Source: a virus (Duplodnaviria; Heunggongvirae; Uroviricota; Caudoviricetes). Taken from it: DNA of 64,000 bases. Shown one piece after another: positions 5,666-63,981 of this stretch (position 1 is the stretch's first letter; each line of letters begins with the position of its first letter). A model generated the notes under the pieces. That model worked only from the letters and a program-made list of their open reading frames with translations, made no database searches and was not told the DNA's origin. The position numbers were made by a program, and so were the translations under genes. The stretch lies in IMG/VR virus record IMGVR_UViG_3300042901_002340; one strand, given 5' to 3'.

Positions 5666-5697
5666 CAAATATAATTAATTATCACGAAAATAAAAAA
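5666..5697 (-). promoter_or_regulatory. Putative early promoter: T-tract...CG-N11-TATATTTG (Bacteroidota -7 element)
   Basis: TAnnTTTG at 5673-5666; CG exactly 11 nt upstream; same layout at 3 other sites. Confidence 0.75.
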
Positions 5698-6603
5698 TTA
5701 TTTCTTTGAAATTTTATTGATAACAGTTGGTGGAAGTCCTCTATGGGATTTTAAATACCCCAGATAACACAACTCTCTATTTGGTGAATCTATTATAACA
5801 TCCAGATCTAATCCAAAAGTAGGTATCCTCATTGTTAATGATTCGGAACAATCTGGAGATAAAGCCTTTCCGTTATCATCAACATCAGATGCTTCGGAAT
5901 GGAAAAAGAATGGCTTCGTATTAACCTTCCATGTAGAAGCAGCAAGAAACATGGCCTCCCTTATCGATAATCCTCCATCATTAAACTGATGTGGTAATAT
6001 TCTAAAACATAGAGGTATCCCAGTTTCGTAATAAACACCGGATAATAAATCTGTTATAGAGAAAAGACTTGGCTTTTCGTCATTCATAACAGTTAATCTT
6101 TTTATCGTTGATTGGTTCAACCTATTAACAACGGTGCAGAATTCTTTCATCGTTTTCTTTCTATTCCCATATGCTGATCCTATCCTTATAACTATGGAAG
6201 GACCATTCATACCAATAACTTCCATTACTTCCGATAACTTATTTAAAAGTTTAATTGTTTTTTCTCTAACCTCATTCAATTGGCTTCCAAGAAAGTAATC
6301 CTTACCTATAAAAAATATAACCCTCATGGAGCTTTTATTTATTATTGAATTTATCTCGTTGATTTTTTCGGATATTATTGGATCTTCCTCCTCTATAAAA
6401 TTGCTATTTATAAATTCGGTTGTCATCTCCAATTCACCAAGATTTAAGCAAACAATTCTGGAGGATATTTTAGAATTGATTATGCACAGTGCTAGAATAA
6501 GATCGAGGATATCCTCATATGAGTATATCCTCTTATCTGTTGTTATTGATTTCTTGGGAATACCAAGATACGATATATTTGCTTGATTGTGTCCGAATAT
6601 CAT
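5698..6603 (-). CDS. UV-damage endonuclease (UvsE/UVDE) homolog, catalytic residues degenerate
   Basis: RIGSAYGNRKKTMKEFC, RLTVMNDEK, GIPLCF, LAASTW and HSE follow the UvsE layout. Confidence 0.75.
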   Translation of the reverse strand: MIFGHNQANISYLGIPKKSITTDKRIYSYEDILDLILALCIINSKISSRIVCLNLGELEMTTEFINSNFIEEEDPIISEKINEINSIINKSSMRVIFFIGKDYFLGSQLNEVREKTIKLLNKLSEVMEVIGMNGPSIVIRIGSAYGNRKKTMKEFCTVVNRLNQSTIKRLTVMNDEKPSLFSITDLLSGVYYETGIPLCFRILPHQFNDGGLSIREAMFLAASTWKVNTKPFFFHSEASDVDDNGKALSPDCSESLTMRIPTFGLDLDVIIDSPNRELCYLGYLKSHRGLPPTVINKISKK

Positions 6604-6619
6604 CTATAGGGTTTCTTAT

Positions 6620-6647
6620 TTGTACTATAAATGATTGGATTGGTTTC
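6620..6647 (-). promoter_or_regulatory. Putative middle (ECF-type) promoter GAAAC-N17-GTACAA
   Basis: Shared bipartite motif with fixed spacing at 9 intergenic sites. Confidence 0.65.
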
Positions 6648-6649
6648 TT

Positions 6650-7129
6650 CTAAACGTTGTTTTCTTGTCCTAATTCACTAGAACCATATACACTTTTAGA
6701 ATTATAAACAGATCCTGGTAATTCACTAGCCTTAGATTTAGATATGGTTTCCATGTTACCATGATCTCCACCGTCTACAAATTTTATGCAGTCAGATTTT
6801 ATTTCTATGACTTTTTTGCTTTTTTTACCCTTTAGTTGCGCTTGGATAAAATATCTGTATTGCTGATTGTCCGGGTTTCTAAAACATCTAACAATAACAC
6901 CAATAACCTTTTTCTTTGAATCAATCGGTTGTGATTCAACTACATCACCAAGTTGAAACTCTGAGCCTTTTACTGTTCTATCAACGTTTGGATCCGGACC
7001 AACAGAAACCGATAAATCGCTATAAGGTTTATAACTAACCTTCATAACTCCATTTCCACTTCCTAATCCATAGGTGTCACCAAATACTCCCCCGTCAAGG
7101 TATTCATATATGCTCTTAATGTGTTTCAT
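6650..7129 (-). CDS. Hypothetical protein with SH3/KOW-like domain and capsid-targeting-like N-terminus
   Basis: MKHIKSIYE N-terminus; FQLGDVVE...VIGVIV. Confidence 0.5.
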   Translation of the reverse strand: MKHIKSIYEYLDGGVFGDTYGLGSGNGVMKVSYKPYSDLSVSVGPDPNVDRTVKGSEFQLGDVVESQPIDSKKKVIGVIVRCFRNPDNQQYRYFIQAQLKGKKSKKVIEIKSDCIKFVDGGDHGNMETISKSKASELPGSVYNSKSVYGSSELGQENNV

Positions 7130-7142
7130 TTGTAGTTTTATT

Positions 7143-7679
7143 TTAATTCTGATCTTTCTGTAGGTTGATCACATCTCTTATTTTAGCTGCAAGCTCAAAT
7201 TTCTCATCACCCAAAGCTTTATTTAACATTTTATCTAAAGTATCAGAATCGGTAATTTCTGCATCCTGCTTATTTTTCAGATTATTAGCTATAATATACA
7301 TTCTCTGTGGTGAATATATAACCTCGAGAGTTGGATCTAAAACAAGATCACTGATCAAATCTTCTCCCTCCTCCTCCATTTCTTCCTTTATCTCGTTTAG
7401 GTATTCCTCGGTCCATACTGGATTATTCCAAAAGATCATCCAATATCCATATATAAGTTCTGGTATATTGTTATCTATGACATATTTAAGAAGACTTTTC
7501 AGTTCATTTTTTAGATCATTCTTAGTTATACCGTCAGCAAATGCTTTTCTTTTAACCCCAGGAATAACTGATACTCCGTCGCCAACTCCATGTTTAAAAC
7601 ATTTGTTAACCTCAAATATGACATCCCAATCCATCCCAGAAAGGATCTTGTCGATTATTTTATCAGTTTCCTTTTTCAT
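7143..7679 (-). CDS. Hypothetical protein with C-terminal UVR (UvrB/UvrC) coiled-coil motif
   Basis: LDKMLNKALGDEKFELAAKIRDVI; GATATATA at 7684-7691 directly upstream. Confidence 0.7.
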   Translation of the reverse strand: MKKETDKIIDKILSGMDWDVIFEVNKCFKHGVGDGVSVIPGVKRKAFADGITKNDLKNELKSLLKYVIDNNIPELIYGYWMIFWNNPVWTEEYLNEIKEEMEEEGEDLISDLVLDPTLEVIYSPQRMYIIANNLKNKQDAEITDSDTLDKMLNKALGDEKFELAAKIRDVINLQKDQN

Positions 7680-7690
7680 CCTCTATATAT

Positions 7691-8113
7691 CTATTTTTTT
7701 AAACCTATCTGATCAGAAACATCTATCATCCAAGCGTTATATTTATCCGGATAGAATTCTTTTAATTGGGAAAGATCCCTTCTGGATATCCTATATCTAT
7801 CACAGATAAAAATTTCAACCTCACTATAATCAGAGGTTTTAGTTTTTTTCCCCACACTTTCCTTCTTTATTGTTTTAGTGTATATCCAGGATGGGGGTTT
7901 GGAAAATCTATTTGATAATGTATTCCTCCACCAATCGACCACAAAATGAGGGGTTACTCTCATTTTGTTAAATTGGTTTGCCTGTACTGGAAACTGTATA
8001 GACATGATTCTATTTATCATGAAGAAGTTTCGTGTCTTATCGTTCTTGCCGACTGAATCCCAGGTTCTTTGATTTTTTGAGAATATATTTTTTACTATAT
8101 CAAAAAGCTCCAT
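7691..8113 (-). CDS. Probable clamp-loader small subunit (gp62-like)
   Basis: FMINRIMS...ANQFN...SWI...K pattern resembles gp62; same operon as the gp44 homolog. Confidence 0.5.
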   Translation of the reverse strand: MELFDIVKNIFSKNQRTWDSVGKNDKTRNFFMINRIMSIQFPVQANQFNKMRVTPHFVVDWWRNTLSNRFSKPPSWIYTKTIKKESVGKKTKTSDYSEVEIFICDRYRISRRDLSQLKEFYPDKYNAWMIDVSDQIGLKK

Positions 8114-9270
8114 TATTGTAAGTATGAAAAAGGATCAAATCCTTTAGGTTGATATCCAGTTGTTACCCATTCACTTCCCTCTAATATCTTTATTCTGTCG
8201 AGTGTAACATTTTTCTTTTGCATTTCCATTCCTCTAGATATTTCTTGCGATGCACCCTTTATAACAAATGGTGGTATAACTTTATGATTTAACCACATAA
8301 GTATCAGATTTCTTTCAAAATTAAGAGCAACTTTTTTTCTATTTTCTGTTTTATCAACATCCTTTGTTGTTCTTAATATCAATCCGCCAATCCAATTAAG
8401 AAACTCTTCATTTTTAATAAGTGCATCAAAAGGTATATTTACCCATTCAGTTTCAAGAAAAGCAGAATAAACCTTCTTGGCCTTACTATCAGTGAATCTA
8501 ACAACCTTATCCTCACCATCCTTGTTTTTAACCACATATTCCCAAACACTGGGAACCGAGTCTCCATCATCGCCGATTAATATCTTATGAAATATGAATG
8601 CATAGCTATCAATCTCCTCTATATTTACCTTCTTTAAGAATTCCTTAAATTTATCCTTCTCCGGTGAAATAGCGGATGACATATTAAATATACTCATACC
8701 AACAGATTCGTTTTTATTAAGCCATTCGTTCTCCCATCCGGTATGGACAGAAATCATATTTTTCTTGGAATTTGTATTCCAGACAGCGGTCCAAGCTTTA
8801 TCATTCATTTTTGCCAACTGGTGCATATCATGATCTCCACTTATAATAAGACAATTTTCACCGTTTAAATTAAAATAATCAGACCAGAACATTAAAAGAT
8901 CATCACCCTCGGCTCCTTCAGATCTCGAGAATATAAACCCCATTTTTTCTAGCTGCTCTCCAAAAGCTGACATAAGTTCAAAAAATATTGTCCAATCAAC
9001 AGTTTCGTCTTTTACCCTTCCGGACTTATATCCACCATCCTCTATCTCGACATCTTTTCTCCAGCTTCTACTATCTGCTGTAAATACCATTCTTCCCCCT
9101 TGTGGAAGCATCTTAAGTGAAGCACATAAATCAGTAGCAACTTTTCTTATAAAAGCTGCTTGTTCAGATTTTTCTTTCAGTACCTTACCTGGATCCATGT
9201 TACCATAACCAGCAAATACACCAAATGTCTTATGGAAATGATGATTACCGTCTATACATATGTTTATCAT
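8113..9270 (-). CDS. rnh: 5'-3' exonuclease / T4 RNase H (FEN family)
   Basis: IDGN, DSRSWRK, YKSGR, EGDD, SGDHD, GDDGDSVP. Confidence 0.88.
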   Translation of the reverse strand: MINICIDGNHHFHKTFGVFAGYGNMDPGKVLKEKSEQAAFIRKVATDLCASLKMLPQGGRMVFTADSRSWRKDVEIEDGGYKSGRVKDETVDWTIFFELMSAFGEQLEKMGFIFSRSEGAEGDDLLMFWSDYFNLNGENCLIISGDHDMHQLAKMNDKAWTAVWNTNSKKNMISVHTGWENEWLNKNESVGMSIFNMSSAISPEKDKFKEFLKKVNIEEIDSYAFIFHKILIGDDGDSVPSVWEYVVKNKDGEDKVVRFTDSKAKKVYSAFLETEWVNIPFDALIKNEEFLNWIGGLILRTTKDVDKTENRKKVALNFERNLILMWLNHKVIPPFVIKGASQEISRGMEMQKKNVTLDRIKILEGSEWVTTGYQPKGFDPFSYLQ

Positions 9271-9272
9271 TA

Positions 9273-9806
9273 TTAATTTTTTAATTGTTTATCTAGATTG
9301 ATCCGTACAAATTCACTATCTATGACGAAATTGGGATCATTTATTCTATAATCAAAATCAGTAAAGTTTTCAAAATCTCTCTCATCAGCAGCTAACCTTC
9401 TATCCACATTATCAGCATCGTTGCGTTTAAGAAGTCTCTCTCTTCTGATATTTTCCAAAATGTCGATATAAACTATAAATGATTCCTTCCTATCGTCAGG
9501 TTTTAATTTATTTATTCCGCCGGGAGTCATTATGAACAAATTAGATTTTTCAAATTCATCCAGTGAAGTACCATATATCCATCCATTAAACTCGACATAT
9601 TCATAGAAAAGATTCTTTGCCACATAATGATGTATGGCAGAATCCAAACTTATGAAATAGTAATCAACACCATCGAGTTCATCTTTTCTTGGAGGTCTGG
9701 TTGTGTGAGATACACAGTATCTATATCCAAAATTTTCAAATTGTTGTCTAGCGTAATCTTTTCCTGATGCAGCTTTTCCAACAAGTATTAGTCTTCTATT
9801 GTCCAT
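9273..9806 (-). CDS. gmk: Guanylate kinase-like
   Basis: GKAASGKD P-loop; SHTTRPPRKDELDGVDYYF; YGTS. Confidence 0.85.
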   Translation of the reverse strand: MDNRRLILVGKAASGKDYARQQFENFGYRYCVSHTTRPPRKDELDGVDYYFISLDSAIHHYVAKNLFYEYVEFNGWIYGTSLDEFEKSNLFIMTPGGINKLKPDDRKESFIVYIDILENIRRERLLKRNDADNVDRRLAADERDFENFTDFDYRINDPNFVIDSEFVRINLDKQLKN

Positions 9807-10750: not shown

Positions 10751-10757
10751 GTATTAA

Positions 10758-12095: not shown

Positions 12096-12116
12096 GTTCA
12101 ATATTTTTAATTTGTA

Positions 12117-12148
12117 CAAAAGTAATAAAATTATACGGTTTAAAAAAA
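12117..12148 (-). promoter_or_regulatory. Putative early promoter CG-N11-TACTTTTG
   Basis: TAnnTTTG at 12124-12117, CG at 12136-12137. Confidence 0.7.
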
Positions 12149-12156
12149 TAAAACAC

Positions 12157-12188: not shown

Positions 12189-12191
12189 ATT

Positions 12192-13841
12192 CTATAGAGT
12201 TACTTGTGGGGGTTTTTCTTCGCCCTCTCCCGCGGGCGGTGTTTCCTCAGTGGCTCCTGGTGCAGGCTGTTCACCTCCTCCTTCAGCCGGAGCTGGAGCA
12301 GCCGCTGCTTTCTCCTCATTCTTCTTATATTCGTCATTCAATTTAAGTTGGTCTGGTGACATACCTAAAAATCTCTGTATAAGGAAATCATTATCGAAAT
12401 ATGGTACATCCTCCTCACCAGATTTCACTTTAAGATCCGCAAGACCCACTATAAATTCACCTTTCTTTTTAAGATTTGTCATTTCAACCTGATCCTCGAA
12501 TTCAAGATCTCTATTAAAATCTAAACCGATATTGGATTTAAAATTTCTATCTTTGGCTAATTCAGGATAATCGAGACACATTTGTATATAAAGGGGTTTT
12601 ACTAATATTTCCTGAAAAATCGATCTAAGTCTTCTTAAGAATTTCTCAAATCTTATCTCATCTCTCTCCAATTGATCTATGGCTATCTGATAGTTAGCCG
12701 GGGTTCCGTTTTTTGCTGCAAATCTTGCATAAGGAATTTTAGAATCCATCTTTAACTTATTAAAGAAATAAAGAACATTGTCCATCACATTAAAATCTGG
12801 TCCAGCAGGATTAAGAGAAGATATTTCAGGAGAAACTCCATTCTGTTCAGGAAATAAATAATTCTTATAGAATTGTACCTTAGGTCTACCATTAACTGTT
12901 AATTCCCCCGATGAGTCATTTATACTAATTTCCTCCTTATAATTGGACATAAGTTGTCCAAGGGTCTGCATAGCCTTTTGTGGTGATTGTGTACCGATCG
13001 GTATAATGAATTTCATTCGGTAACTAGCATTCATAACATTCCAAATAACCCTGGAATTTTCCATTATTCTTAGAATATTATAAGATCTAACAAGTCTTTC
13101 AACGTAACTAGTTCTTGATATGGTATTACCCTTAGCATATGAGATGTATATTATTTGTTCATTAGTAAGCTTTCTATACATCTGTGGATTACCCGGATAT
13201 TGAATCCAGAATTGTTTATATTCACTCTCTCCAACTCTTTCAACCACAGGTTCAAGCGAAGCTGCATCCAATTCCTTGAATCCTATTATTTCCTTGCCCT
13301 TACTATCATAAATAATCTCAAATGCTAGAAACCCATCTATGATAAACTGTCTAAAATATTGCCAACCTAAAACTGTATTTTGAAACTGAAATATATTATA
13401 GATTCTATTAAAATGAGACATTACTTTTTCTTTCACCTTATCTTTCAGATCCAGATTTGAAAATGAAGGTTGTGCAAAATAATTTCTGTCATCATAAACT
13501 ATAGCCTCGTCAGTTATTATATCAAGTATAAATTCAATCTCTCCATTTATTGAGAATTTTCTAAGGTAGTTTCTTTTTTCGATATATGACTTATCGAAAT
13601 ATGCTATATACTTTCTTACCTTTGTGTCATGGTAGGAAGCGGTCCATTGAAATGCACTATCCTTTGTATATCCTGTTCCCTCCTGATTAAAAAAAGCTCC
13701 CTCGGTCCTACCTATAGCCTGCGAGTTCCTAACAATCATATCATCATATTGCATACCAAACTTGGAAATATTACCAAGATTTTTCAATATGTTACCTAAT
13801 GCTGCTTGATTTGGTTTTAAATAGTCTAAAAATCCTGCCAT
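12192..13841 (-). CDS. Portal protein (gp20-like), paralog B
   Basis: EIEFILDIITDEAIV, YFRQFIIDG, LRIMENSRVIW, RDEIRFEKFLRRLRSIFQ. Confidence 0.9.
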   Translation of the reverse strand: MAGFLDYLKPNQAALGNILKNLGNISKFGMQYDDMIVRNSQAIGRTEGAFFNQEGTGYTKDSAFQWTASYHDTKVRKYIAYFDKSYIEKRNYLRKFSINGEIEFILDIITDEAIVYDDRNYFAQPSFSNLDLKDKVKEKVMSHFNRIYNIFQFQNTVLGWQYFRQFIIDGFLAFEIIYDSKGKEIIGFKELDAASLEPVVERVGESEYKQFWIQYPGNPQMYRKLTNEQIIYISYAKGNTISRTSYVERLVRSYNILRIMENSRVIWNVMNASYRMKFIIPIGTQSPQKAMQTLGQLMSNYKEEISINDSSGELTVNGRPKVQFYKNYLFPEQNGVSPEISSLNPAGPDFNVMDNVLYFFNKLKMDSKIPYARFAAKNGTPANYQIAIDQLERDEIRFEKFLRRLRSIFQEILVKPLYIQMCLDYPELAKDRNFKSNIGLDFNRDLEFEDQVEMTNLKKKGEFIVGLADLKVKSGEEDVPYFDNDFLIQRFLGMSPDQLKLNDEYKKNEEKAAAAPAPAEGGGEQPAPGATEETPPAGEGEEKPPQVTL

Positions 13842-13845
13842 CTTA

Positions 13846-15462
13846 TTATAATGTTACTTGAGGTGGTTTTTCTTCTCCTCCTTCTTTTTTGCCTTCCTCG
13901 CCTTCTTTAGGTTTCTCTGCCTTTGCTTTTTCTTTCGCTTTTCTTTCTTTGGCTTCCTTATTTGCTGTTATATCTTGCTTCGACATCCCTAGATATTCCT
14001 CAATAAGGAAAGCATTAGAGAAGAAAGGTTTTCCTTCGTCATTTAGAAGTCCTCCAAGACCAGTTATGGTCTCTTTCCTTTGTGCCATCTTTGCTATTTC
14101 CTGATTCTCTTTAAATGGATTATCCGACCAATAGCTAAGACCCAATTGACTTTTAAAAAGGAAATCTTTCTCCAGTTGCGGATACTTATTAACCATCTGT
14201 ATCCACATAGGCTTAACTAATATTTCCTGGAAAACAGATCTAAGTCTAGAAATAAATTTATAAAATCTTATCTCTTCTTTATCTAGACCTTCCGCACCAT
14301 TCGAATATGGAGATGTACTACCACCATCAGGATTGTGAAATCTCGAAGGAGGAACTTTAGACTCAAGTATAAACTTATCAAAGAAATATGTCAATGGAGC
14401 AGGATCATTAAGATTAGGACCCTCCGTATTAATAGGCTCTATAGTTGGTGTACCATTAACTCCAGAAGGCATAAGGTAGTTTTTATAGAATTGTATTTTA
14501 GGTCTACCATCAACTGTAAGTTCACCACTCTCATCATTAAGTTGTATATCTTCTTTATAAACACTCATAAGTTCACCCAATGTTTGCATACCTTTTTGTT
14601 GAGATTTAGTCCCGATTGGAACAGTCATCTTCAATTTAAAGGAAGCATTCATAACAGACCATATGACTCTCGTATATTCTATTATTCTCAATATATTATA
14701 GGGTCTTATTAATCTCTCGATGTAACTAACCCTAGATATAGAGTTTCCTTTAGCATATGAGATATAGATTATCTGAGGATCATAAAGGGTTCTTTTCTTC
14801 TTGGGATCCTGTGGATATTGTGTCCATGTGCTAACAAAACTACCATCCAGTTGTTTTTCAACACTTGGTATTAAAGTTACAGGATCAAGTTCCTTGAAAC
14901 CAACTATTTTTTTACCGGTATCGTCATAAACGATCTCAAACGAAAGAAATCCGTCTATAATGAATTGTCTAAAGTATTGCCATGCAGTTATATCATCAGA
15001 GAATCCCCATATATCATACAGATTTTTATAAACATCATAGAGTTCATCCTTGACTTTCTCGTTTACGTCAGTCAAATCTATAAAATCTGGATATGCAAAA
15101 AAGTTTGCTGGATCATAAGTTATAGCTTCATCACAGATTGTATCAAGAACCCATTCAACCTCCGGATTAAGAGAAAACATTCTTAAAAAGTCCCTCTTTC
15201 CCTTATAATCTTTATCAAAATAACCTATAAATTGTCTGGTGGTAACATCCTGCTTTGCAAGAGCCCATAACATACTCTCGTCCTCGACATTTGACTTATT
15301 TTTATTAAGAAATGCTGCTTCAGTTACACCGACAGCTTGCGAATTTCTTATTACCATATCATCATACTTCATACCAAAGGTACTCAGTTTTTTAACTGAT
15401 TCCCTTATTCTCTGTACAACCGGTGATTCCGATGGCTTATTATTATCTACAAAACCTGCCAT
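13846..15462 (-). CDS. Portal protein (gp20-like), paralog A
   Basis: PEVEWVLDTICDEAI, YFRQFIIDG, SKVPPSRF, KEEIRFYKFISRLRSVFQ. Confidence 0.9.
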   Translation of the reverse strand: MAGFVDNNKPSESPVVQRIRESVKKLSTFGMKYDDMVIRNSQAVGVTEAAFLNKNKSNVEDESMLWALAKQDVTTRQFIGYFDKDYKGKRDFLRMFSLNPEVEWVLDTICDEAITYDPANFFAYPDFIDLTDVNEKVKDELYDVYKNLYDIWGFSDDITAWQYFRQFIIDGFLSFEIVYDDTGKKIVGFKELDPVTLIPSVEKQLDGSFVSTWTQYPQDPKKKRTLYDPQIIYISYAKGNSISRVSYIERLIRPYNILRIIEYTRVIWSVMNASFKLKMTVPIGTKSQQKGMQTLGELMSVYKEDIQLNDESGELTVDGRPKIQFYKNYLMPSGVNGTPTIEPINTEGPNLNDPAPLTYFFDKFILESKVPPSRFHNPDGGSTSPYSNGAEGLDKEEIRFYKFISRLRSVFQEILVKPMWIQMVNKYPQLEKDFLFKSQLGLSYWSDNPFKENQEIAKMAQRKETITGLGGLLNDEGKPFFSNAFLIEEYLGMSKQDITANKEAKERKAKEKAKAEKPKEGEEGKKEGGEEKPPQVTL

Positions 15463-15482: not shown

Positions 15483-15490
15483 TATATATC
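15483..15490 (-). promoter_or_regulatory. Putative late promoter GATATATA (portal operon)
   Basis: Octamer 21 nt upstream of ATG. Confidence 0.75.
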
Positions 15491-16378: not shown

Positions 16379-16406
16379 TTTTAGTTAGTTAATACTAAAA
16401 GATTTC
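16379..16406 (-). promoter_or_regulatory. Putative middle promoter GAAAT-N17-CTAAAA upstream of gp55-like gene
   Basis: Same spacing as other class-2 sites; lies right after a terminator. Confidence 0.55.
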
Positions 16407-16412: not shown

Positions 16413-16447
16413 AAAAAAAGAATGTAGTAAAAAATACTACATTCTTC
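16413..16447 (-). terminator. Intrinsic terminator
   Basis: aagaatgtagta-aaaaa-tactacattctt hairpin plus U-tract. Confidence 0.85.
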
Positions 16448-19179: not shown

Positions 19180-19262
19180 GGTTTACTTTTTTTTTTATTG
19201 ATTATATATCCATACAAGGACAAGAAACTTTTTACTATATATTTGATAAGAGAAATATTTTA

Positions 19263-21360: not shown

Positions 21361-21408
21361 AATTATATGTTTAAAAATTTATCTACTATATATCTGAAAA
21401 AATAAACA

Positions 21409-22036: not shown

Positions 22037-22882
22037 CTATGATAAATCAAAAATATCTAGATTATTACATCTATTTTGATCCAAATATGCTCTTAAAGGT
22101 TCTCTTAGGTCTTTAGCAGGATATATCTTAGGTTCGCTTTCTGGTCCTATATGACACAAAAAACCACTTTCTGTCTCTATCCCAAGTTCATCTTCCAATA
22201 TGAGTCTATAAAGTGATATCTGTATAGAATATTCATTGTGGTGATTTTCATACAAAAAACTAAACGGTCTAAGTAGCTTTTTATATTTTCCTTTCGGGTG
22301 GTTATCATCCTTAAACTCACCATTTGTCTTCCAATCACCTAATATAAAAAGTACCTTATTTCTCTTAGAATCCCAGAATAAGAATGGCTGATCTATGGTA
22401 CCAGCTAATCTCCACTTTTTTGAAAATATCCTCAATTCAGATTTTAATGGGACTAGAGAATGAAATTTCCTATTGTATAGGTCCATAAATTTATCAACTC
22501 TGGATCTATATTCAGTATCAGCATCGGGTAATTGCGGATCTAATCCACTCCAGAAATCCTCTATAAACTTATGTACTTTAGTTCCAAGTTCATTAGCGAC
22601 GTCGCCTTTTTCTTTCCATTCGTTCAATATAACAGATTGCTCAACTCCACGCTCTCTAGCTTTTTTCTTGGACCAATATTCCTTATCAAATGGGGTTTTA
22701 AAAGTTTTAAGATACGTAGTAACAGAATCAAACTTTACACCATTGTATCTATAAACGTGGCTAGGTTCGTCAAAATCGAATCTATTGTCATTAAAGAATT
22801 TTAGTTTATCGTTTATCTCATTCTTCGCCTTCTCTATAGCTTCTACCATGGAAGATGTAATAGATTGGATACGTAATCCCAT
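22037..22882 (-). CDS. PD-(D/E)XK exonuclease (start may be 22849)
   Basis: SVTT, GTKVH, LAGTIDQ, GDWKTN, YSIQISLY. Confidence 0.85.
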   Translation of the reverse strand: MGLRIQSITSSMVEAIEKAKNEINDKLKFFNDNRFDFDEPSHVYRYNGVKFDSVTTYLKTFKTPFDKEYWSKKKARERGVEQSVILNEWKEKGDVANELGTKVHKFIEDFWSGLDPQLPDADTEYRSRVDKFMDLYNRKFHSLVPLKSELRIFSKKWRLAGTIDQPFLFWDSKRNKVLFILGDWKTNGEFKDDNHPKGKYKKLLRPFSFLYENHHNEYSIQISLYRLILEDELGIETESGFLCHIGPESEPKIYPAKDLREPLRAYLDQNRCNNLDIFDLS

Positions 22883-23289
22883 TTAATATAAATTAGTAAT
22901 ATTAAAGCAATTTCCGATATGAATCTAAATATCCAGATCCAGCTAATTTCTCTGAAAACGAATTGGTAAACAACAAGATATGACTCGTCATTTGTACCCT
23001 TTACAGGATCTATCCATAAAGTCAATATCTCCTCAAGGTTTAACGACTTCAGATAAGCATTTATTGGTTTTATTTCATTCAATACAAAGGAAGGTCTAGC
23101 TTCCTTGGGAAGATCATTAGACATCAATACCTCAGGTGGTAAATTAACAACTGTGTATATTCTATTAAGATAATCTCTCCTTAAATTCTTCCTACTCCAT
23201 AGAGGGGAGTTAAGTTCCTCCGATTTTATTTGTTTAACATATTCTCTATATAGAGATATCTCCTTTAGGACTCTGAGCAATCTAAACAT
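22843..23289 (-). CDS. Hypothetical protein with C-terminal transmembrane helix
   Basis: ORF; WIWIFRFISEIALILLIYI; class-2 promoter at 23305-23331. Confidence 0.6.
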   Translation of the reverse strand: MFRLLRVLKEISLYREYVKQIKSEELNSPLWSRKNLRRDYLNRIYTVVNLPPEVLMSNDLPKEARPSFVLNEIKPINAYLKSLNLEEILTLWIDPVKGTNDESYLVVYQFVFREISWIWIFRFISEIALILLIYIKWDYVSNLLHLPW

Positions 23290-23321
23290 AACATTTTTAT
23301 TATTTTATACTGGAAAACAAA

Positions 23322-24002
23322 TCAAAGTTTCTCAGATGGTAATTTTGATGGTGAATTATTTGTTTTGCATCTACTTTTCCCAGTAATAATTTCAACAGAT
23401 TCAGGACCAACATTTTTTGTTATCTTATTTCTCGCTCTTCTTATTCTGGTAGCTACCGATCTCTTCTTAAGATCATACTTTTCCGCTATATCCTTATATT
23501 TCATATTATTGATTTCCCTATCAATCATTATGTTTTTATAAAGGTCAGGAAGATTCTCTATTTCCTCTATAACAGATCCATATATCTCATCAAATTTGTT
23601 AGTTTCATTAAAAAATGAATTTGATTGATCCTCCTCCATATTATATGTTCCCCCAACATCACCAATTTCATTATTCGATGAAAAGAATTCCATTTCTAAA
23701 CTTGTTCTCGCGTTATATTTCTTCTCCTCCTTCATTAAAAGAAGAGTTTCGTTTCTTGCTATATTATAGCACCATGTTGAAAAATTACCTCTCTCGTCAT
23801 TATACTGATCTATTTTTTGCCATATCTTGGACATGGTGTTCAGGAAGGCATCCTCCGCTAGAGAAGGATCCTTCACTATTAAAAAACAGTGATTAAGTAT
23901 GCCAGGTTTTAATCTTTCAAAGAGATCTCTGAATGATTTATCAGATTTTTGTTTTATAAATTCTCCCGCTAATTTTTGTATATTTTTTTCCTTTCCTTGC
24001 AT
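23322..24002 (-). CDS. RNA polymerase sigma factor, sigma-70 ECF subfamily
   Basis: Region 2 LAEDAFLNTMSKIWQKIDQY...FSTWCYNIARN; region 4 IENLPDLYK...YKDIAEKYDL...VATRIRRAR. Confidence 0.9.
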   Translation of the reverse strand: MQGKEKNIQKLAGEFIKQKSDKSFRDLFERLKPGILNHCFLIVKDPSLAEDAFLNTMSKIWQKIDQYNDERGNFSTWCYNIARNETLLLMKEEKKYNARTSLEMEFFSSNNEIGDVGGTYNMEEDQSNSFFNETNKFDEIYGSVIEEIENLPDLYKNIMIDREINNMKYKDIAEKYDLKKRSVATRIRRARNKITKNVGPESVEIITGKSRCKTNNSPSKLPSEKL

Positions 24003-24003: not shown

Positions 24004-24579
24004 TTATTGTTTTTTTCTTAAGATTTCTATTCCTGCTTCAGCAAGGAAAGCTATTGATTCTGGTTTTCTGTAAATTTCTGAAAATACCACTCTTCTAATA
24101 CCTGATTGTATTATTAGTTTAGAACATTCGTAACATGGGGATAGAGTTACATATAATGTTGACCCATCGGAGCTTTGTGTTCCTCTCGCTAATTTTGTTA
24201 TTGCATTAGCTTCAGCGTGTAGCACATACGGTAATGTAACATCATTAACCTCGCATATATTGGGAAACCCGCTAGGAGATCCATTGTATCCATCCGATAT
24301 TATTGACTTATCCTTGACTATAAGAGAACCAACCTGCATTCTTTTGCATTTAGAATTCTTCGACCAAACTTGAGCCATCTCCATGTATATCGAGTCTTTT
24401 TCATGTTGCTTTGGTTCAGTAAATTTTATATTTGGGTCATCCGAATAGAACACTTCATAACTGATGGTGGAATCATATCCAGACAAAGATTTAATTATTT
24501 TTCTTTCAATCTTCCAGGTGGGTTTTTTTAGAAAATCCTCTGTTATAAAAGAGGTATCTCCGTGGATTTCAAATTTCAT
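24004..24579 (-). CDS. dCMP deaminase
   Basis: GYNG, HAEANAI, TLSPCYECSKLIIQSGI. Confidence 0.92.
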   Translation of the reverse strand: MKFEIHGDTSFITEDFLKKPTWKIERKIIKSLSGYDSTISYEVFYSDDPNIKFTEPKQHEKDSIYMEMAQVWSKNSKCKRMQVGSLIVKDKSIISDGYNGSPSGFPNICEVNDVTLPYVLHAEANAITKLARGTQSSDGSTLYVTLSPCYECSKLIIQSGIRRVVFSEIYRKPESIAFLAEAGIEILRKKQ

Positions 24580-24602
24580 GGGGCAGATTTTTTAATATCT
24601 TA

Positions 24603-24634
24603 CAAATATAAATCAAAAATACGGGATAAAAAAA
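24603..24634 (-). promoter_or_regulatory. Putative early promoter CG-N11-TATATTTG driving dCMP deaminase and the ECF sigma
   Basis: TAnnTTTG at 24610-24603, CG at 24622-24623. Confidence 0.75.
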
Positions 24635-24652
24635 TAAATTTGGAATTATTTT

Positions 24653-27781: not shown

Positions 27782-28357
27782 TTATAAAAATAGATCCTCC
27801 CAGTAATCACAAACCCATGATGTTCTTATGGTATAGATAGCAGGAGTTTCATAATCAAGATCCATTGCGTTTATAGGTTCACTTATGAAGCAAGAAGGAA
27901 TTCTTATTCTTCTAAAAACATCACCTTGTTTATTAAATATTGAAATTAGGATGGATCCAACATAGTCATTTTTAAGACCCATCGCTCCAGTTAGAGGATT
28001 ATAGATCAAATCAGACCATTGTCTAAGTATTTTGTAAAGCTCCATAGAATTGGAGTTATTAAGGTTGACCTCAAATTCCATGGAAAGATTCATATCACTA
28101 GTTTGAGGTTCACCTCCAGCATATCTTCTGGTAGCAAACTTATAGTTTTGATTTACCGTCTGTGCAGGAGCAATATCAACAGCTAATCCTGTTATAGATT
28201 TAACCTGCTGAGTCAATATGCTTTCACCATTAAAAGTTGTACTAGCCGAAACTATAGCAGCAGGTGGGCTTATCAGTACTTCAAACTGATTAAGAAATAC
28301 AGGCTCAAAATTATTTATACCTGCAAGTGAATTTGTAAAATGTGGTAATCCAGCCAT
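27782..28357 (-). CDS. Tail tube protein (gp19-like), paralog B
   Basis: Follows sheath; EPVFLNQFEV, RQWSDLIYNPLTG, CDYWED. Confidence 0.85.
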   Translation of the reverse strand: MAGLPHFTNSLAGINNFEPVFLNQFEVLISPPAAIVSASTTFNGESILTQQVKSITGLAVDIAPAQTVNQNYKFATRRYAGGEPQTSDMNLSMEFEVNLNNSNSMELYKILRQWSDLIYNPLTGAMGLKNDYVGSILISIFNKQGDVFRRIRIPSCFISEPINAMDLDYETPAIYTIRTSWVCDYWEDLFL

Positions 28358-28371
28358 TTATATTTTTTATT

Positions 28372-28926
28372 TTATAGGAATAGATCGTCCCAATAATCAA
28401 CGGCAAATACCATATCATCTATCTTATATAGATCAGTACTTGTGTAGTTTAGATTCATTGGTGAGATAGGTTTAGTCGGAAACGTATCCTTGCATGTTAT
28501 TCTCCTATAAACGTCACCAGCTTTATTGAAAACCGAAATAATTATAGTTCCAGTGTAGTCATTTTTAAGACCCATCGCTCCAGTTAGAGGATTATAGATC
28601 AAATCAGACCACTGTCTTAAAGTTTTAAAGACGTACATGGAATTTGCATCATTAAGGTTGACGCTGAACGTTATACTAAGATCCATAAAGGTATTCTCAG
28701 GTTTCGATCCCGCATAATTCCTTTTAGCAAATTTATATTTCTGTTGAACCGTTCCTGGATTTTTATCTAGAGAAAGTCCATTAACCTTGCTAACGTGTTG
28801 TAATAAAATGTTACCACCCGCTATAGCAGCCGGTGGTATTATTGTTACCTCGAATTGATTCAGATAAACAGGTTCATACTTGTTTATCGATGATAGTGAA
28901 TTTTGATAATGTGATAGTCCTGCCAT
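28372..28926 (-). CDS. Tail tube protein (gp19-like), paralog A
   Basis: EPVYLNQFEV, RQWSDLIYNPLTG, FPT, VDYWDD. Confidence 0.85.
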   Translation of the reverse strand: MAGLSHYQNSLSSINKYEPVYLNQFEVTIIPPAAIAGGNILLQHVSKVNGLSLDKNPGTVQQKYKFAKRNYAGSKPENTFMDLSITFSVNLNDANSMYVFKTLRQWSDLIYNPLTGAMGLKNDYTGTIIISVFNKAGDVYRRITCKDTFPTKPISPMNLNYTSTDLYKIDDMVFAVDYWDDLFL

Positions 28927-32358: not shown

Positions 32359-32366
32359 TATATATC
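32359..32366 (-). promoter_or_regulatory. Putative late promoter GATATATA (sheath)
   Basis: Octamer 30 nt upstream of ATG. Confidence 0.75.
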
Positions 32367-37511: not shown

Positions 37512-37558
37512 TCTTATTTGTACTTTTTCTTATATATCAAAAATTCCTAGACTACAAA

Positions 37559-37884: not shown

Positions 37885-37928
37885 TTTAATTTTTTAATTT
37901 ATACTAATTTTATTAGATATTGTTTCGA

Positions 37929-46547: not shown

Positions 46548-46575
46548 TCTTACGGGGTATTTTCTTTTTTGTTTC
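46548..46575 (-). promoter_or_regulatory. Putative middle promoter GAAAC-N17-GTAAGA
   Basis: Class-2 spacing; about 210 nt upstream of uvsX. Confidence 0.6.
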
Positions 46576-49772: not shown

Positions 49773-49859
49773 ATTGTTTTGATATAAATTTTATTGTATA
49801 TATCAAACAAAAAAACCATAACTAGAAGCTATGGTAATAATTGGAATATTATGCTGATT

Positions 49860-53302: not shown

Positions 53303-53350
53303 TCACTTTTTAATTTTATAGTAAGAAACACTTTAATTATTTCCCGACCG

Positions 53351-57983: not shown

Positions 57984-57988
57984 ATTTT

Positions 57989-58669: not shown

Positions 58670-58671
58670 TT

Positions 58672-59295: not shown

Positions 59296-59302
59296 AGCTT
59301 AT

Positions 59303-60004
59303 TTATTTTATATTATTTTTAGTTAATATATCATGTACAGTAAATGGTAGTTTCTTTGCATTAAAATTACTTCCTGTATGAATTCTATGAGAAACTAGAA
59401 TTTTTTGTATATTATGGAATGTTTTGTTTTGTTTGTATAATCTTATCCAAAAGTCAAAATCTTCCATTCCCTCTACATCCTCGTCCCATCCCCCTATTTC
59501 TATTGCATCGGAGGTTCTAAATAAAGATGATGAATTTACTATCTGATTATGGCCAGCGAGAAATCCACTCTTTATGTCAATATCATTTTGATCTAAATTT
59601 AGAATGTTTGTTTTATTGTTATTTTTATCTATATAATATGCTAGTGTACCAATTACATCAAAATTTTTACAAATAGCTACCTGTTCAGATAATTTATTTA
59701 TTTCCCATATATCATCTCCGTCTATCAGTGAGATATATTCGGTATCTATTATTTTTAGTAGCTTATTAAGAGTTTTTGCCTTACCTTTATCATCACCATA
59801 GTCAACTATCGTGAATCTCTGATCTGTCTCTATTAGTGATTTTGCTATTTCTTTGCTAGAATCCACCGTCCCGTTGAATGCTATTATACATTTGAAGTCT
59901 TTGAATTTCTGAGCTAGTATACTTTCTATTGTGTATCCAAGGTATGCCTCATCATTATATACGGGCAGAAGTATTGTTACGCTATCCATCATATAATAAT
60001 CCAA
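59303..60004 (-). CDS. GT2 glycosyltransferase
   Basis: LLPVYN, IESILAQ, IDGDD, KLSEQ, EDFDFWIR. Confidence 0.88.
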   Translation of the reverse strand: MDYYMMDSVTILLPVYNDEAYLGYTIESILAQKFKDFKCIIAFNGTVDSSKEIAKSLIETDQRFTIVDYGDDKGKAKTLNKLLKIIDTEYISLIDGDDIWEINKLSEQVAICKNFDVIGTLAYYIDKNNNKTNILNLDQNDIDIKSGFLAGHNQIVNSSSLFRTSDAIEIGGWDEDVEGMEDFDFWIRLYKQNKTFHNIQKILVSHRIHTGSNFNAKKLPFTVHDILTKNNIK

Positions 60005-60783
60005 TTTTCACAATATACATCACTTGGATTCTTTTGCATATAAGGTCCAAACCAATTTGAAGGTGCTATCGTTTTTTTACTGTTAGCTAACCAAGAACCC
60101 CACCAACTGAATGAACTATTTGCTATTATATGACCATGGCATAATGACATTAAATACATATCAATATAGGGGCTTCCTGATTCAACTATTGTTGAATTAT
60201 TGATGTGTAGGTTCTGTCTGCACCATTCTGGATCATCGGAAAATATATAAAAATTTGAATTTGTATCGAAGTGTCCTGCTGCCTTCATATAATATTCTAC
60301 GCTCTGAGTTGGATGATGTCCAGGTGAAGTTAGGTAATCTCCTCTTCTAACATGAACAGAAACACCGTTTTCTATATCTATATGACTCTTTGAATCATCT
60401 ATAATATCATCTCTGAATGTGAATATTTCTCTTATTTCTGAATCTATGAACTTGAAGTACTTTTCGGTTTGAAAGTATCCCGATAATGAAGTCGAATCTG
60501 GTAGTGTTCCCGTTTGTGTATTAAATCCGAAATCTGTTTCGTAATATATGTGATTTATCGGTATTTCACCGCTTGTCTTTATTAGATTTTTTGGTATATT
60601 AAAACATTCCAATAATTTGCATCCATCATATGAATTCGGATCTGAACCCTGCTGAAATCTTTCAGCGGGAAAAACTGGATCAAATCCAAGTTTTCTAGCT
60701 ATTCCTATGGTTGAAGCAAATTGAAACATTTGATTACCAAATCTTCCCATGTGTCCAATATTATTAAAAGTTATCATAATCAA
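59989..60783 (-). CDS. GT11 alpha-1,2-fucosyltransferase
   Basis: GRFGNQMFQ, GYFQTEKYF, HVRRGDY, FSDDPEW, NSSFSWWG. Confidence 0.93.
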   Translation of the reverse strand: MIMITFNNIGHMGRFGNQMFQFASTIGIARKLGFDPVFPAERFQQGSDPNSYDGCKLLECFNIPKNLIKTSGEIPINHIYYETDFGFNTQTGTLPDSTSLSGYFQTEKYFKFIDSEIREIFTFRDDIIDDSKSHIDIENGVSVHVRRGDYLTSPGHHPTQSVEYYMKAAGHFDTNSNFYIFSDDPEWCRQNLHINNSTIVESGSPYIDMYLMSLCHGHIIANSSFSWWGSWLANSKKTIAPSNWFGPYMQKNPSDVYCENWIII

Positions 60784-60793
60784 TTATTTATAA

Positions 60794-60857
60794 TTTTACT
60801 GCTTTTTTACATTTTAGTTCCGTTTCATAGGAACAAAAAGTAACAAATAATCTAAAA
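60794..60857. promoter_or_regulatory. Back-to-back class-2 promoters: GGAAC-N17-GTAAAA (-) and GGAAC-N17-CTAAAA (+)
   Basis: - strand 60821-60794; + strand 60830-60857. Confidence 0.65.
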
Positions 60858-60873
60858 ATATAAAAGTGAACTT

Positions 60874-61530
60874 ATGAAAAAATTATCGGTTGTTGTGCCA
60901 TATAGAGATAGGGAGGAACACCTTAAGCAATTTGTGCCATATATGGAGAAATGGTTAAAGGATGAAGAAATACCATTTGAGATAATAATAGTAAACCAGA
61001 CGGAAGGAAAGGGATTCAATAGAGCAAAGCTTTTAAATATAGGATTCAAGGAAACTGAAAATTGCGATTATCACGTTTTTCATGATGTTGATATGTTACC
61101 TACTGATTCGGATTATGATTATACTAAAGGTCCAACACATCTTGCCTCGCAAGCTGAACAGTTTGGATATAAACTTCCCTATGATGGGTACTTTGGTGGT
61201 GTTACCATCTTTGATAAACCTAGCTTTCTTAAGATAAATGGCTATTCTAATGATTATTGGGGATGGGGTGCGGAAGATGATGACGTTCTATATAGATGCT
61301 CGATAATGGAAATACCTATATATAGAAAACAGTGCAGATATAAATCATTGGATCACGAAAGAAACATAGAAAGAGAACCGTATATAAAAAACATACACAG
61401 ACTCAATAAATTTATAACTAACGCTTCGGAGAATTCCGTAATGGGGGACGGTTTATCTAATTTAGAATACACAAAAATCGAGGATAAGATGCTAACAGAG
61501 CATACAAGATTTATAACTGTTGAGATTTAA
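60874..61530 (+). CDS. GT7 beta-1,4-galactosyltransferase-like
   Basis: VVVPYRDREEHL, FNRAKLLNIG, FHDVD, YFGGV, INGYSNDYWGWGAEDDD. Confidence 0.92.
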   Translation: MKKLSVVVPYRDREEHLKQFVPYMEKWLKDEEIPFEIIIVNQTEGKGFNRAKLLNIGFKETENCDYHVFHDVDMLPTDSDYDYTKGPTHLASQAEQFGYKLPYDGYFGGVTIFDKPSFLKINGYSNDYWGWGAEDDDVLYRCSIMEIPIYRKQCRYKSLDHERNIEREPYIKNIHRLNKFITNASENSVMGDGLSNLEYTKIEDKMLTEHTRFITVEI

Positions 61531-61739
61531 GATTCTCTTTTAAGATCACAGAGTACCCTATCGACAGTATTTATTAGATGTTCCATATTTTTACTTAGAG
61601 TATCAGGATCATCATTTTTTAGAAGATAGCTTATGGTCTCTAAAGATCCTAATGAATATGCTATTTTATTTTTAAGTATATAGTTCTCCCTTAGAAGATT
61701 GTTTGGTTCTGCTGAATTGTCGTCTGGTAAAATTCCCAT
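61527..61739 (-). CDS. Small hypothetical protein
   Basis: ATG start, helical, converges on GT7. Confidence 0.5.
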   Translation of the reverse strand: MGILPDDNSAEPNNLLRENYILKNKIAYSLGSLETISYLLKNDDPDTLSKNMEHLINTVDRVLCDLKRES

Positions 61740-61788
61740 TTCTTTTCTTTTTATAATATATAACTAAAACAAAAAAAAAGTACAAAAC

Positions 61789-61828
61789 AAAAAAAAAGCC
61801 TAGATTTTTTGGAATCTAGGCTTTTTTT
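61789..61828. terminator. Intrinsic (bidirectional-type) terminator
   Basis: aaaaaaagcctagatt-ttttgg-aatctaggcttttttt. Confidence 0.85.
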
Positions 61829-61829
61829 A

Positions 61830-63923
61830 TTATTTTTTTGGTTTAGTTATCTTGACCTTTATTGGTGGCTGAATTCCTCCATCCTTTGTTTTATCGAATG
61901 CTAATGTTATTGTATCTCCCTCTGATACTTTAGTCTGTACCATCAAATCAGCTAAGGTGTCCTCAATATATTTTTGTATGATTCTTTTTAATGGTCTTGC
62001 TCCAAATTTTGGATTGAATCCTTCCTCGCATATCTTTTCCTTAAGGTCAGATGAAATTTTTATTTTGTAACCCAATGACTCTATTCTAGGTAAAGTTTTA
62101 TTTAATTCGACTTCAAGAATATCCAACATGTTTTCTTTACCTAATTCTTTAAAGTAAACGATGTCGTCCAATCTATTAATAAACTCGGGCGAGAATTTTT
62201 TTTCTAATTCTTTCTTTAGTAAAGCTTCGTTCTCAAATTCTTTATTATTTGATTTGGTTGATGTTACAAATCCGCTGCTTGTCCCAAATTCCGATAGTTT
62301 TCTTTGACCAACATTAGAGGTTAGTATAATCAAGGTGTTTTTGAAATTTATCTTTCTACCCTGTCCGTCTGTTAAATGACCTTCGTCAAGAATCTGTAGA
62401 AGTGTATTAAAGATTTCTGGATGTGCTTTTTCAATCTCATCAAAAAGAACTATTGAGTATGGCTTTCTTCTAACTTTTTCTGTTAGCTGTCCGCCATCTT
62501 CGTGACCAACGTATCCTGGAGGTGCTCCGAACATTTTAGTAGCATCAAACTTTTCACCATATTCACTCATGTCGATTCTTATTAGTGAATCACTTTCACC
62601 AAACATATACTTAGCAAGTTCTTTAGCTAATTGAGTTTTACCAACTCCTGTTGGACCAAGAAATAGAAATGTACCGATGGGTTTGTTTGGATCTTTTATT
62701 CCCATCCGATTTCTTAGAACTGCTCTGGATACTTTTTCTATGACATGATCCTGACCGATAACCTTACCTTTAAGCTCTGTGCTCATGTTAGCTAGCTTGA
62801 AGTTTTCGTCTTGATTTACTTTCTTAAGCGGAACCCCTGACATCATAGCTACAACCTCTGCAACCTTCTCTCCGTCTACTGTTTTCTTTTTTCCTTTTAA
62901 CCTTGTCTCCCAAAGTTTTATTTCCGATTCCAGCGACACCTCAGTGTGTCTTTGTAGATCTCTAAATTTTGCTGCACCTTCATAATCCTGTCTTTTTACA
63001 GCGAGTTGTTTGTCAATTGCTATTTGAGCTAAATTCTTTTCCAGCTTGGTTATGGTATCCGGTACTTTAACGTCGCTTAGCTGTGTTCTACTGCCCGCTT
63101 CGTCTAAAGCATCTAAAGCCTTGTCCGGAAAGTTTCGGTCCGTTATATAGCGTTCTGTGAGCTTTACGCAGTTGATTATGGCATCGTCTGTATACTTTAC
63201 GTTGTGATGATCCTCATATTTGGATTTTACACTGTTTAGTATATCTATTGTGGTTTCCATATCGGGTGGATTCACAAGTACCTTCTGGAATCTTCTTTCT
63301 AGAGCTCCGTCTTTTTCTATATGCTGACGGTATTCATTTAGTGTTGTTGCACCAATACATTGGATTTCACCTCTAGCTAAAGCAGGCTTGAACATATTTG
63401 AAGCATCTAAAGATCCCGAAGATCCTCCAGCCCCGATTATGGTGTGTAGCTCATCGATAAAAATTATGATGTCTCTATTCTTCTTAAGTTCGTCTATGAT
63501 TGATTTAATTCTTTCCTCGAATTGTCCTCTGTATTTTGTTCCAGCCACAAGAGAACCCATATCCAGAGTTAGAATTCTTTTGTTTAGTAGGGTCTGTGAA
63601 ACTTTTCTTTGTACTATCTTTAGCGCTAATCCCTCAGCTATTGCAGATTTACCAACTCCTGGTTCACCGATAAGAACCGGATTATTCTTCTTTCTCCTGG
63701 AGAGAATCTGGGAGATTCTCTCTATCTCAGGATCTCTGCCTATAATAGGATCGAGTTCACCTCTTGATGCGAGATCAGTTAAATCCGTTGAATGGGAATC
63801 AAGCACTGGGGTTTTACCTGTTCCTTTTTTGGACTTATACTCGCTTTGGTGGTCGTCCTCGTTCCCATCCGTGTATTGATCCATGGATGGTGAAATTTTC
63901 TTTTTGTAGTCTCCTCTTTTCAT
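61830..63923 (-). CDS. clpC: ClpC-like Hsp100 ATPase lacking the N-terminal Clp domain
   Basis: LDPIIGR, GEPGVGKS, FIDELH, DGALERRF, UVR M-domain QDYEGAAKFRD, GPTGVGKT, RIDMSEY, GAPPGYVG, GARPLKR. Confidence 0.9.
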   Translation of the reverse strand: MKRGDYKKKISPSMDQYTDGNEDDHQSEYKSKKGTGKTPVLDSHSTDLTDLASRGELDPIIGRDPEIERISQILSRRKKNNPVLIGEPGVGKSAIAEGLALKIVQRKVSQTLLNKRILTLDMGSLVAGTKYRGQFEERIKSIIDELKKNRDIIIFIDELHTIIGAGGSSGSLDASNMFKPALARGEIQCIGATTLNEYRQHIEKDGALERRFQKVLVNPPDMETTIDILNSVKSKYEDHHNVKYTDDAIINCVKLTERYITDRNFPDKALDALDEAGSRTQLSDVKVPDTITKLEKNLAQIAIDKQLAVKRQDYEGAAKFRDLQRHTEVSLESEIKLWETRLKGKKKTVDGEKVAEVVAMMSGVPLKKVNQDENFKLANMSTELKGKVIGQDHVIEKVSRAVLRNRMGIKDPNKPIGTFLFLGPTGVGKTQLAKELAKYMFGESDSLIRIDMSEYGEKFDATKMFGAPPGYVGHEDGGQLTEKVRRKPYSIVLFDEIEKAHPEIFNTLLQILDEGHLTDGQGRKINFKNTLIILTSNVGQRKLSEFGTSSGFVTSTKSNNKEFENEALLKKELEKKFSPEFINRLDDIVYFKELGKENMLDILEVELNKTLPRIESLGYKIKISSDLKEKICEEGFNPKFGARPLKRIIQKYIEDTLADLMVQTKVSEGDTITLAFDKTKDGGIQPPIKVKITKPKK

Positions 63924-63948
63924 AAAAAATTTTATCCTTTATTTTATG

Positions 63949-63981
63949 CAAATATAGGATAAAATTTCGAAATATAAAAAA
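63949..63981 (-). promoter_or_regulatory. Putative early promoter CG-N11-TATATTTG (clpC)
   Basis: TAnnTTTG at 63956-63949, CG at 63968-63969. Confidence 0.75.

Follow-up and report, generated by a model that had tools for sequence, protein, structure and literature searches.

Which sigma factors direct transcription in a huge, uncultured phage, and in what order, is the question raised by a 64,000-nucleotide (nt) stretch of viral DNA (the window) from IMG/VR record IMGVR_UViG_3300042901_002340. The window encodes an extracytoplasmic function (ECF)-type sigma factor and a short homologue of the T4 late sigma factor gp55, and its genes are preceded by three classes of short motif: class 1, a T-rich element followed by TAnnTTTG; class 2, tGAAAY-N16/17-sTAnAA; and class 3, the single box GATATATA. 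Middle genes of T4 are controlled by MotA/AsiA rather than by a sigma factor, and phage SPO1 uses a sigma cascade. We propose that in the phage studied here the host polymerase is handed from sigma to sigma, with the host sigma-A reading class 1, the phage ECF sigma class 2 and the gp55-like protein class 3, a reading that on balance we consider probable, if modestly so. The window corresponds to positions 223,430 to 287,429, read on the reverse strand, of a 430,120-bp genome (G000; G000:C1 coordinates refer to the whole genome), a single virus record with direct terminal repeats. It has a G+C content of about 33%, contains no tRNA genes and carries nearly all of its genes on the minus strand. 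Judged by its gene content, the phage is a distant relative of T4 from Bacteroidota-type bacteria.

The motifs, which we infer to be promoters, stand out by strand and position; their raw counts in the AT-rich window were near chance. Intergenic k-mer enrichment run with no prior guess recovered two strong signals, TATATTTGC and GATATATA, corresponding to classes 1 and 3, and enrichment by strand, intergenic location and distance to the start codon gave P values of 1e-28 to 1e-39 for these two classes. Class 1 comprised about 65 intergenic sites genome-wide, with the consensus aATTTTTTTATtyCGAAA followed after about 9 nt by TATATTTGC. Most of these sites lay 25 to 33 nt ahead of a start codon, with a concentration in the first 207 kb. 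The sequence TATATTTG occurred 93 times on the coding strand and 42 times on the other strand, with 54 intergenic copies versus 7.0 expected. TAnnTTTG is the -7 element recognized by the primary sigma factor, sigma-A, of flavobacteria (PMC9723704). Two groups of class-1 promoters deviated from the consensus: eight at G000:C1 158.7-168.4 kb carried TTTAACGTTTnATATCGTT, an AACG-N8-CGTT inverted repeat, instead of the upstream T-tract, and a second block at G000:C1 108-147 kb carried the variant GGATTTCA. These variants may be a regulator site or define subclasses of early promoters.

Class 3 consisted of an 8-bp box, GATATATA, about 27 to 30 nt before virion start codons, with no conserved upstream box and no -35 element. 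Genome-wide, 70 copies lay on the coding strand and 23 on the other; 46 were intergenic (5.3 expected) and 37 were located 20 to 40 nt before a start codon (1.9 expected). Within the window, the 11 copies (9.1 expected) were all on the coding strand, 8 of them at 22 to 37 nt before a start codon. A single box preceding virion genes is what would be expected of late promoters of the gp55 family, suggesting that class 3 may be read by the gp55-like protein. As stated in a preliminary description of this DNA, the box precedes virion genes, namely those for the head protease, portal, sheath and neck/terminase and, outside the window, the tail fibres. It also precedes homing endonuclease genes outside the window (HNH and others, adjoining tRNA genes at G000:C1 203.6-206.9 kb), and class 3 is therefore not confined to virion genes.

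Class 2 was smaller, with about 15 sites, and was specific in its spacing. The pattern GAAAY-N17-STAnA was found 32 times on the coding strand and 13 times on the other, and its 12 intergenic copies (2.4 expected; P, 2e-6) compared with only 0 to 3 intergenic sites at each of the control spacings N14-16 and N18-20. Class-2 sites lay about 41 to 58 nt before start codons, and a T-tract often followed the GAAAC box on its 3' side. Promoters of ECF sigma factors carry AAC at -35, the sigma-W motif being TGAAAC with CGTA (PMC5758882). The geometry of class 2 fits such targets, in which the -10 box follows the AAC by about 16 to 17 nt, and suggests that the phage ECF sigma could be its reader. The distance from GAAAC to sTA also agrees with that of Bacillus subtilis sigma-W promoters (TGAAAC-N16-CGTA). 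In a dyad enumeration, GAAA-N19-TATA and AAAC-N18-TATA were present, though not top-ranked, and unsupervised expectation maximization on upstream regions, after removal of those with classes 1 and 3, returned nothing but generic AT-rich patterns, without a fourth class. Genome-wide motif discovery thus retrieved classes 1 and 3 by k-mer enrichment and yielded nothing beyond AT-rich patterns by expectation maximization.

We examined the conservation of the motifs among relatives. Eighty IMG/VR loci carried a gp55-like gene (80 to 98% protein identity), and 45 of them had distinct upstream DNA. A GAAAY-N17-STA site was present within 110 nt of the gp55 start in 37 of these 45, versus 0 to 6 for other spacings, the 17-nt spacer and the leader varying freely. 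The class-1 promoter before the deaminase gene that opens the ECF sigma operon was retained in about 21 of 26 distinct ECF sigma loci, and the class-2 site at the ECF sigma stop codon was kept in the 9 closest relatives and in the orthologue of a second genome, IMGVR_UViG_3300017917_003822 (G002; 270,629 bp). All three classes recurred in G002 with similar statistics, class 2 giving 19 intergenic sites at N16/17 and 0 to 1 at other spacings. Among the 179 pairs of orthologues compared for the two genomes, promoter class was kept in 29 and switched in 1. By class, the G002 orthologue had the same class for 17 of 24 class-3 genes (1 different), 6 of 9 class-2 genes and 6 of 13 class-1 genes (none different in either), the rest having no scored motif in G002. 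The conservation of sites, and of class on orthologues, provides good support for the motifs being functional and distinct from one another.

These data bear on the possibility that the motifs are not promoters at all, being RNA processing or translation signals or a product of AT-rich intergenic composition. The near-chance raw counts in the window, the AT richness of intergenic DNA and the outcome of expectation maximization would fit such an explanation. It is nevertheless very improbable in view of the two boxes of class 2 with their fixed spacing and freely varying spacer, the match of class 1 to a known sigma-A -7 box, and the strand bias, fixed distance to start codons, placement after terminators and retention of class on orthologues. 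The three distinct motif classes put forward in the preliminary description were thus borne out by strand and position genome-wide and by their recurrence in G002; its claim that they sort genes by function held clearly for class 3, fairly for class 1 and only loosely for class 2.

The ECF sigma gene is the second gene of an operon opened by a dCMP deaminase gene (Table 1). Its 226-aa product has regions 2 and 4 only, in line with the architecture of group 4 (ECF) sigma factors of about 200 amino acids (aa), and scored 62.8 bits on TIGR02937, the ECF superfamily model (cutoff, 42.9), with TIGR02985, a Bacteroidota ECF group, and SigW as its top subfamily matches. More than 500 metagenomic clusters of homologues were found, on contigs of up to 386 kb. 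The autoregulation typical of ECF sigma factors was not seen at this operon, the promoter of which is class 1 and not class 2. The next gene always encodes the same conserved protein, of 148 aa and with a membrane helix at its C terminus, even where the sigma factor of a relative is only 33% identical. We considered this protein as an anti-sigma factor; it matched no protein family, anti-sigma families included, and the role is unsupported because its AlphaFold2 model (predicted local distance difference test [pLDDT] score, 77) found no fold match in the PDB.

The gp55-like protein, of 119 aa, is assigned to the gp55 family by sequence comparison. As a single sequence it matched only T4 gp55 (7d7c_F) in the PDB (E value, 5e-4), and a profile of 36 homologues matched T4 gp55 with an E value of 5.8e-23, the next-best sigma factor reaching 0.007, in agreement with the minimal gp55 of the preliminary description. 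The C-terminal clamp-binding tail is absent: the 119-aa subfamily ends some 60 residues short of the GLEKF-type tail found in the 160- to 199-aa homologues. Its conserved C terminus, YN[IVF], might be a reduced partner-binding tail. In the 430-kb genome, gp33 and gp45 gave no match (phrog_254, T4 gp33, PF02916 and T4 gp45), a search that could miss fast-evolving homologues. An intrinsic terminator lies just upstream of the gp55-like gene, and its stem is kept in relatives through compensatory changes; it is predicted to shield the gene from transcription of the upstream late operon.

A third phage sigma factor is encoded outside the window, about 82 kb away, at G000:C1 ~180958-181860 (L001:973-1875, minus strand), on the strand opposite to most genes. 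This 300-aa protein is RpoD/RpoS-like, aligning end to end with RpoS and RpoD models, and its gene is preceded by a class-1-type promoter, TATCTTTGC. Because of this RpoD-like sigma factor outside the window, the relay is not three-tier as had been described.

In the relay that we propose, the host primary sigma factor would first read the approximately 65 class-1 promoters, and the early genes would include the deaminase-ECF operon and the RpoD-like sigma gene. The ECF sigma would then read class 2, switching on DNA metabolism genes and the gp55-family sigma gene, which the strong terminator would insulate from upstream transcription. Finally, the gp55-like sigma would read GATATATA before virion genes. 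The wiring expected from the preliminary description, each regulator behind the promoter class of the preceding tier, was found: the deaminase-ECF operon has a class-1 promoter, retained in most relatives, and the gp55-like gene has a conserved class-2 site, its first box reading GAAAT rather than the GAAAC that had been quoted. Class-2 genes that fit a middle role are those for gp32 (outside the window) and the UvsE-like nuclease and the exonuclease and UvsX operons. For the UvsX operon, in addition to the class-2 site listed in Table 1, a nearer variant, GAAAC-N17-ATA, starts 53 nt before the UvsX ATG (GAAAC at ~46392).

Table 1. Positions in the window of the sigma factor genes, their neighbours and the motifs of the three classes
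Feature	Position	Strand	Remarks
Class-1 promoter of deaminase-ECF operon	24602..24640	-	T-tract, CCCG, -7 box TATATTTGT at 24602-24610; fits 65-site consensus
dCMP deaminase, first gene of operon	24004..24579	-	PF00383, E value 7e-26
Phage ECF-type sigma, 226 aa	23322..24002	-	Regions 2 and 4_2 only; PF04542 and PF08281
Class-2-like promoter	23304..23331	-	GAAAC-N16-GTATAAA; overlaps ECF sigma stop codon; faces 148-aa gene and exonuclease
Conserved 148-aa protein	22843..23289	-	C-terminal membrane helix; next gene after ECF sigma
Intrinsic terminator 5' of gp55-like gene	16413..16444	-	Fold energy -19.8 kcal/mol, z -8.9
Class-2 promoter of gp55-like gene	16379..16406	-	GAAAT-N17-CTAAAAT, directly after strong terminator
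Short gp55-family late sigma, 119 aa	15989..16348	-	Region 2 only; profile versus T4 gp55; phrog_234, E value 3e-15
Class-1 -7 box before 3'-5' exonuclease gene	5665..5673	-	
Class-1 -7 box before ligase/clamp loader/guanylate kinase/RNase H operon	12116..12124	-	TACTTTTGT
Class-1 -7 box before AAA+ protease gene	63948..63956	-	
Class-2 promoter before UvsE-like endonuclease gene	6621..6647	-	
Class-2 promoter before 90-aa gene	37900..37926	-	G002 orthologue likewise class 2
Class-2 site before UvsX-helicase-SbcCD operon	46551..46575	-	GAAAC-N17-GTA; 237 nt before operon
Class-2 promoter before glycosyltransferase gene	53317..53343	-	
Class-3 promoter before head maturation protease	1269..1276	-	
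Class-3 promoter before 271-aa gene	4914..4921	-	
Class-3 promoter before two portal genes (phrog_213)	15483..15490	-	GATATATA; kept in closest relatives
Class-3 promoter before 856-aa gene	19203..19210	-	
Class-3 promoter before 90-aa gene and genes after	21387..21394	-	
Class-3 promoter before tail sheath gene	32359..32366	-	Sheath phrog_34521, E value 1e-119
Class-3 promoter before neck (head closure) gene and large terminase	37531..37538	-	
Class-3 promoter before 474-aa gene	49797..49804	-	

The assignment of class 2 to the ECF sigma has to be weighed against the RpoD-like sigma, which may read class 2 or take over class 1. With the same motifs and the same wiring, the RpoD-like sigma could recognize class 2 in the form TTGAAA-N19-TAnAAT, leaving the ECF sigma with fewer or other genes, such as only those just downstream of it. 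The class-2 boxes do resemble classical -35 and -10 hexamers, and the RpoD-like sigma gene lies behind a class-1-type promoter, so that its product would be made early too. Group-2 jumbo phages also carry minimal and RpoD-like sigma factors together (PMC7824862). On the other hand, sigma-70-type factors prefer 17 nt between the hexamers, and a gap of 19 suits them poorly (PMC5758882), and GAAAC, the downstream T-tract and the spacing are typical of ECF promoters. Moreover, the cultured Chryseobacterium phage MA9V-2, which encodes an RpoD-like sigma and a short gp55 and is devoid of an ECF sigma, has no class-2 motif before gp55. We therefore regard a reading of class 2 by the RpoD-like sigma as unlikely.

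A further alternative is that a host factor reads class 2, either a host ECF sigma or sigma-A together with an unrecognized MotA-like phage activator, the phage ECF sigma being auxiliary. Bacteroidota genomes hold many ECF sigma factors for AAC/CGT-type promoters (PMC9723704), and many early genes of the phage have no known function. We nonetheless find this quite improbable, since the phage ECF sigma gene is syntenic across the clade at a distance from gp55 of about 7 kb and has a class-2 promoter immediately at its 3' end, and since MotA (PF09114) and AsiA (PF09010) gave no match in the genome at E values of up to 10. That the ECF sigma replaces MotA/AsiA, as had been suggested, is in keeping with this last result as far as the missing homologues go; the replacement itself would be an analogy.

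Several observations weigh against the proposed relay. The contrast with MA9V-2 comes from a single, very distant genome, and all complete relatives checked carry the ECF, RpoD-like and gp55-like sigma factors together; co-occurrence thus cannot assign class 2, because the RpoD-like sigma accompanies the ECF sigma in every one of them. Class 2 is small and functionally mixed, including a glycosyltransferase gene and genes of unknown function; its -10 box (sTAnAAt) has no CGT, a feature common to many ECF promoters, and its boxes allow the hexamer reading given above. Before gp55 of the more distant LR756500 and of Lak-B5, both of which have ECF homologues, the motif was not found. Finally, with gp33 and gp45 not found and gp55 short and devoid of its C-terminal tail, a T4-style late mechanism cannot be assumed. 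G002, in which no RpoD-like sigma was present, was considered as a natural test favouring the ECF sigma and was rejected, as synteny shows it to be a fragment. It misses the equivalent of 90-249 kb of G000 (about 160 kb), including UvsX, the helicase and SbcCD. Since G002 is rated 99% complete by CheckV and is yet a fragment, completeness estimates for this clade are untrustworthy.

The genomic context supports the relationship to T4. Family searches and phmmer comparisons with T4 proteins identified a T4-type core with homologues of gp20, gp17, gp18, gp32, gp43, gp44, gp46/47 and UvsX. Core structural genes are those for two portals, the large terminase, the tail sheath, tube paralogues, a neck protein and the head protease; core replication and repair genes are those for UvsX, a DnaB-like helicase, SbcCD (gp46/47), the gp44 clamp loader, RNase H and ligase. 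The genes for gp32 and for gp43, the polymerase in two pieces, lie elsewhere in the genome, the gp43-like DNA polymerase being matched by two separate genes about 14 kb apart (G000:C1 370973-372379 and 386707-387852). Megablast against known phages gave zero matches. The nearest deposited phages, at 30 to 50% protein identity, were the uncultured huge phages LR756500-04 and the Prevotella Lak megaphages, along with Tenacibaculum PTm1/PTm5, Sphingomonas PAU and Chryseobacterium MA9V.

Other features of the window concern gene duplication and gene content near gp55. Two full-length portal genes stand in tandem (12192-15462, minus strand; 549 and 538 aa, both phrog_213) behind a single late promoter, and two tail tube paralogues are neighbours (27782-28926, minus strand; 191 and 184 aa, both phrog_32623). 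A TnsA-like endonuclease gene (PF08722; 15500-15985, minus strand) separates the gp55-like gene from the portal genes. Judged from the gp55-portal spacing, a gene of that size is there only in the closest relatives; what follows further downstream in others is another gene, coding for about 455 aa and preceded by a class-2 promoter.

Phage sigma relays (SPO1), small middle/late sigma factors (phiEco32 and 7-11) and late control by gp55 (T4) are already established. Like SPO1, which uses sigma-A, gp28 and gp33/gp34, the present phage would run a sigma relay on the host core polymerase with early, middle and late promoter classes, and the gene for each regulator follows a promoter of the type that belongs to the stage before, here in a conserved arrangement. 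Unlike SPO1, it belongs to an unrelated lineage and host phylum, with a candidate ECF middle sigma, a region-2-only gp55 as putative late sigma and an additional RpoD-like sigma. With T4, it shares the T4-type core, a gp55 homologue and a putative late promoter consisting of a single AT-rich 8-bp box without a -35 element, close to the gene. T4 differs in its early sigma-70, middle MotA/AsiA and late gp55-gp33-gp45 control, of which MotA, AsiA, gp33 and gp45 were undetected here; in its gp55, of 185 aa rather than 119, the C-terminal part being absent here; in its late box, TATAAATA instead of GATATATA; and in its MotA box, where middle genes here have a two-box, ECF-like promoter.

In phiEco32 and 7-11, a small phage factor of the sigma-70 family (gp36, middle and late) redirects the host polymerase to phage-specific two-box promoters (PMC8948821, PMC12276001); these are, however, enterobacterial podoviruses that have one phage sigma, lack a gp55 stage and use a helper, gp79, for which no counterpart was found here. 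Minimal and RpoD-like sigma factors have been described in T4-like jumbo phages (PMC7824862, PMC13282480). The group-2 (T4-like) jumbo phages surveyed by Iyer et al. in 2021 resemble the present phage in this respect and in having no phage RNA polymerase (PMC7824862), but they have a gp33 orthologue, not found here, and neither a third, ECF sigma nor promoter wiring was described. In a literature search, we found no paper on an ECF sigma feeding a gp55 gene or on these promoter classes.

A more extensive version of the relay can be put forward for the whole clade of huge Bacteroidota phages, with its hundreds of metagenomic relatives: a pure four-sigma relay in which the ECF sigma would take the role of MotA/AsiA, gp55 would act independently of the clamp, without gp33 and gp45, and the RpoD-like sigma would replace the host sigma at the unusually extended class-1 promoters. 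We offer it tentatively and consider it rather doubtful in this full form. Phage sigma relays as such are textbook material. If the one proposed here is correct, it would provide a concrete transcription programme for abundant, uncultured Bacteroidota phages of 270 to 430 kb, and its promoter consensuses could guide the annotation of genes as early, middle or late across hundreds of metagenomic genomes. An ECF sigma in place of MotA/AsiA would then prove compatible with late control of the T4 type, which might even do without the sliding clamp, and the three short promoter types and their small sigma factors could serve as orthogonal expression parts for Bacteroidota.

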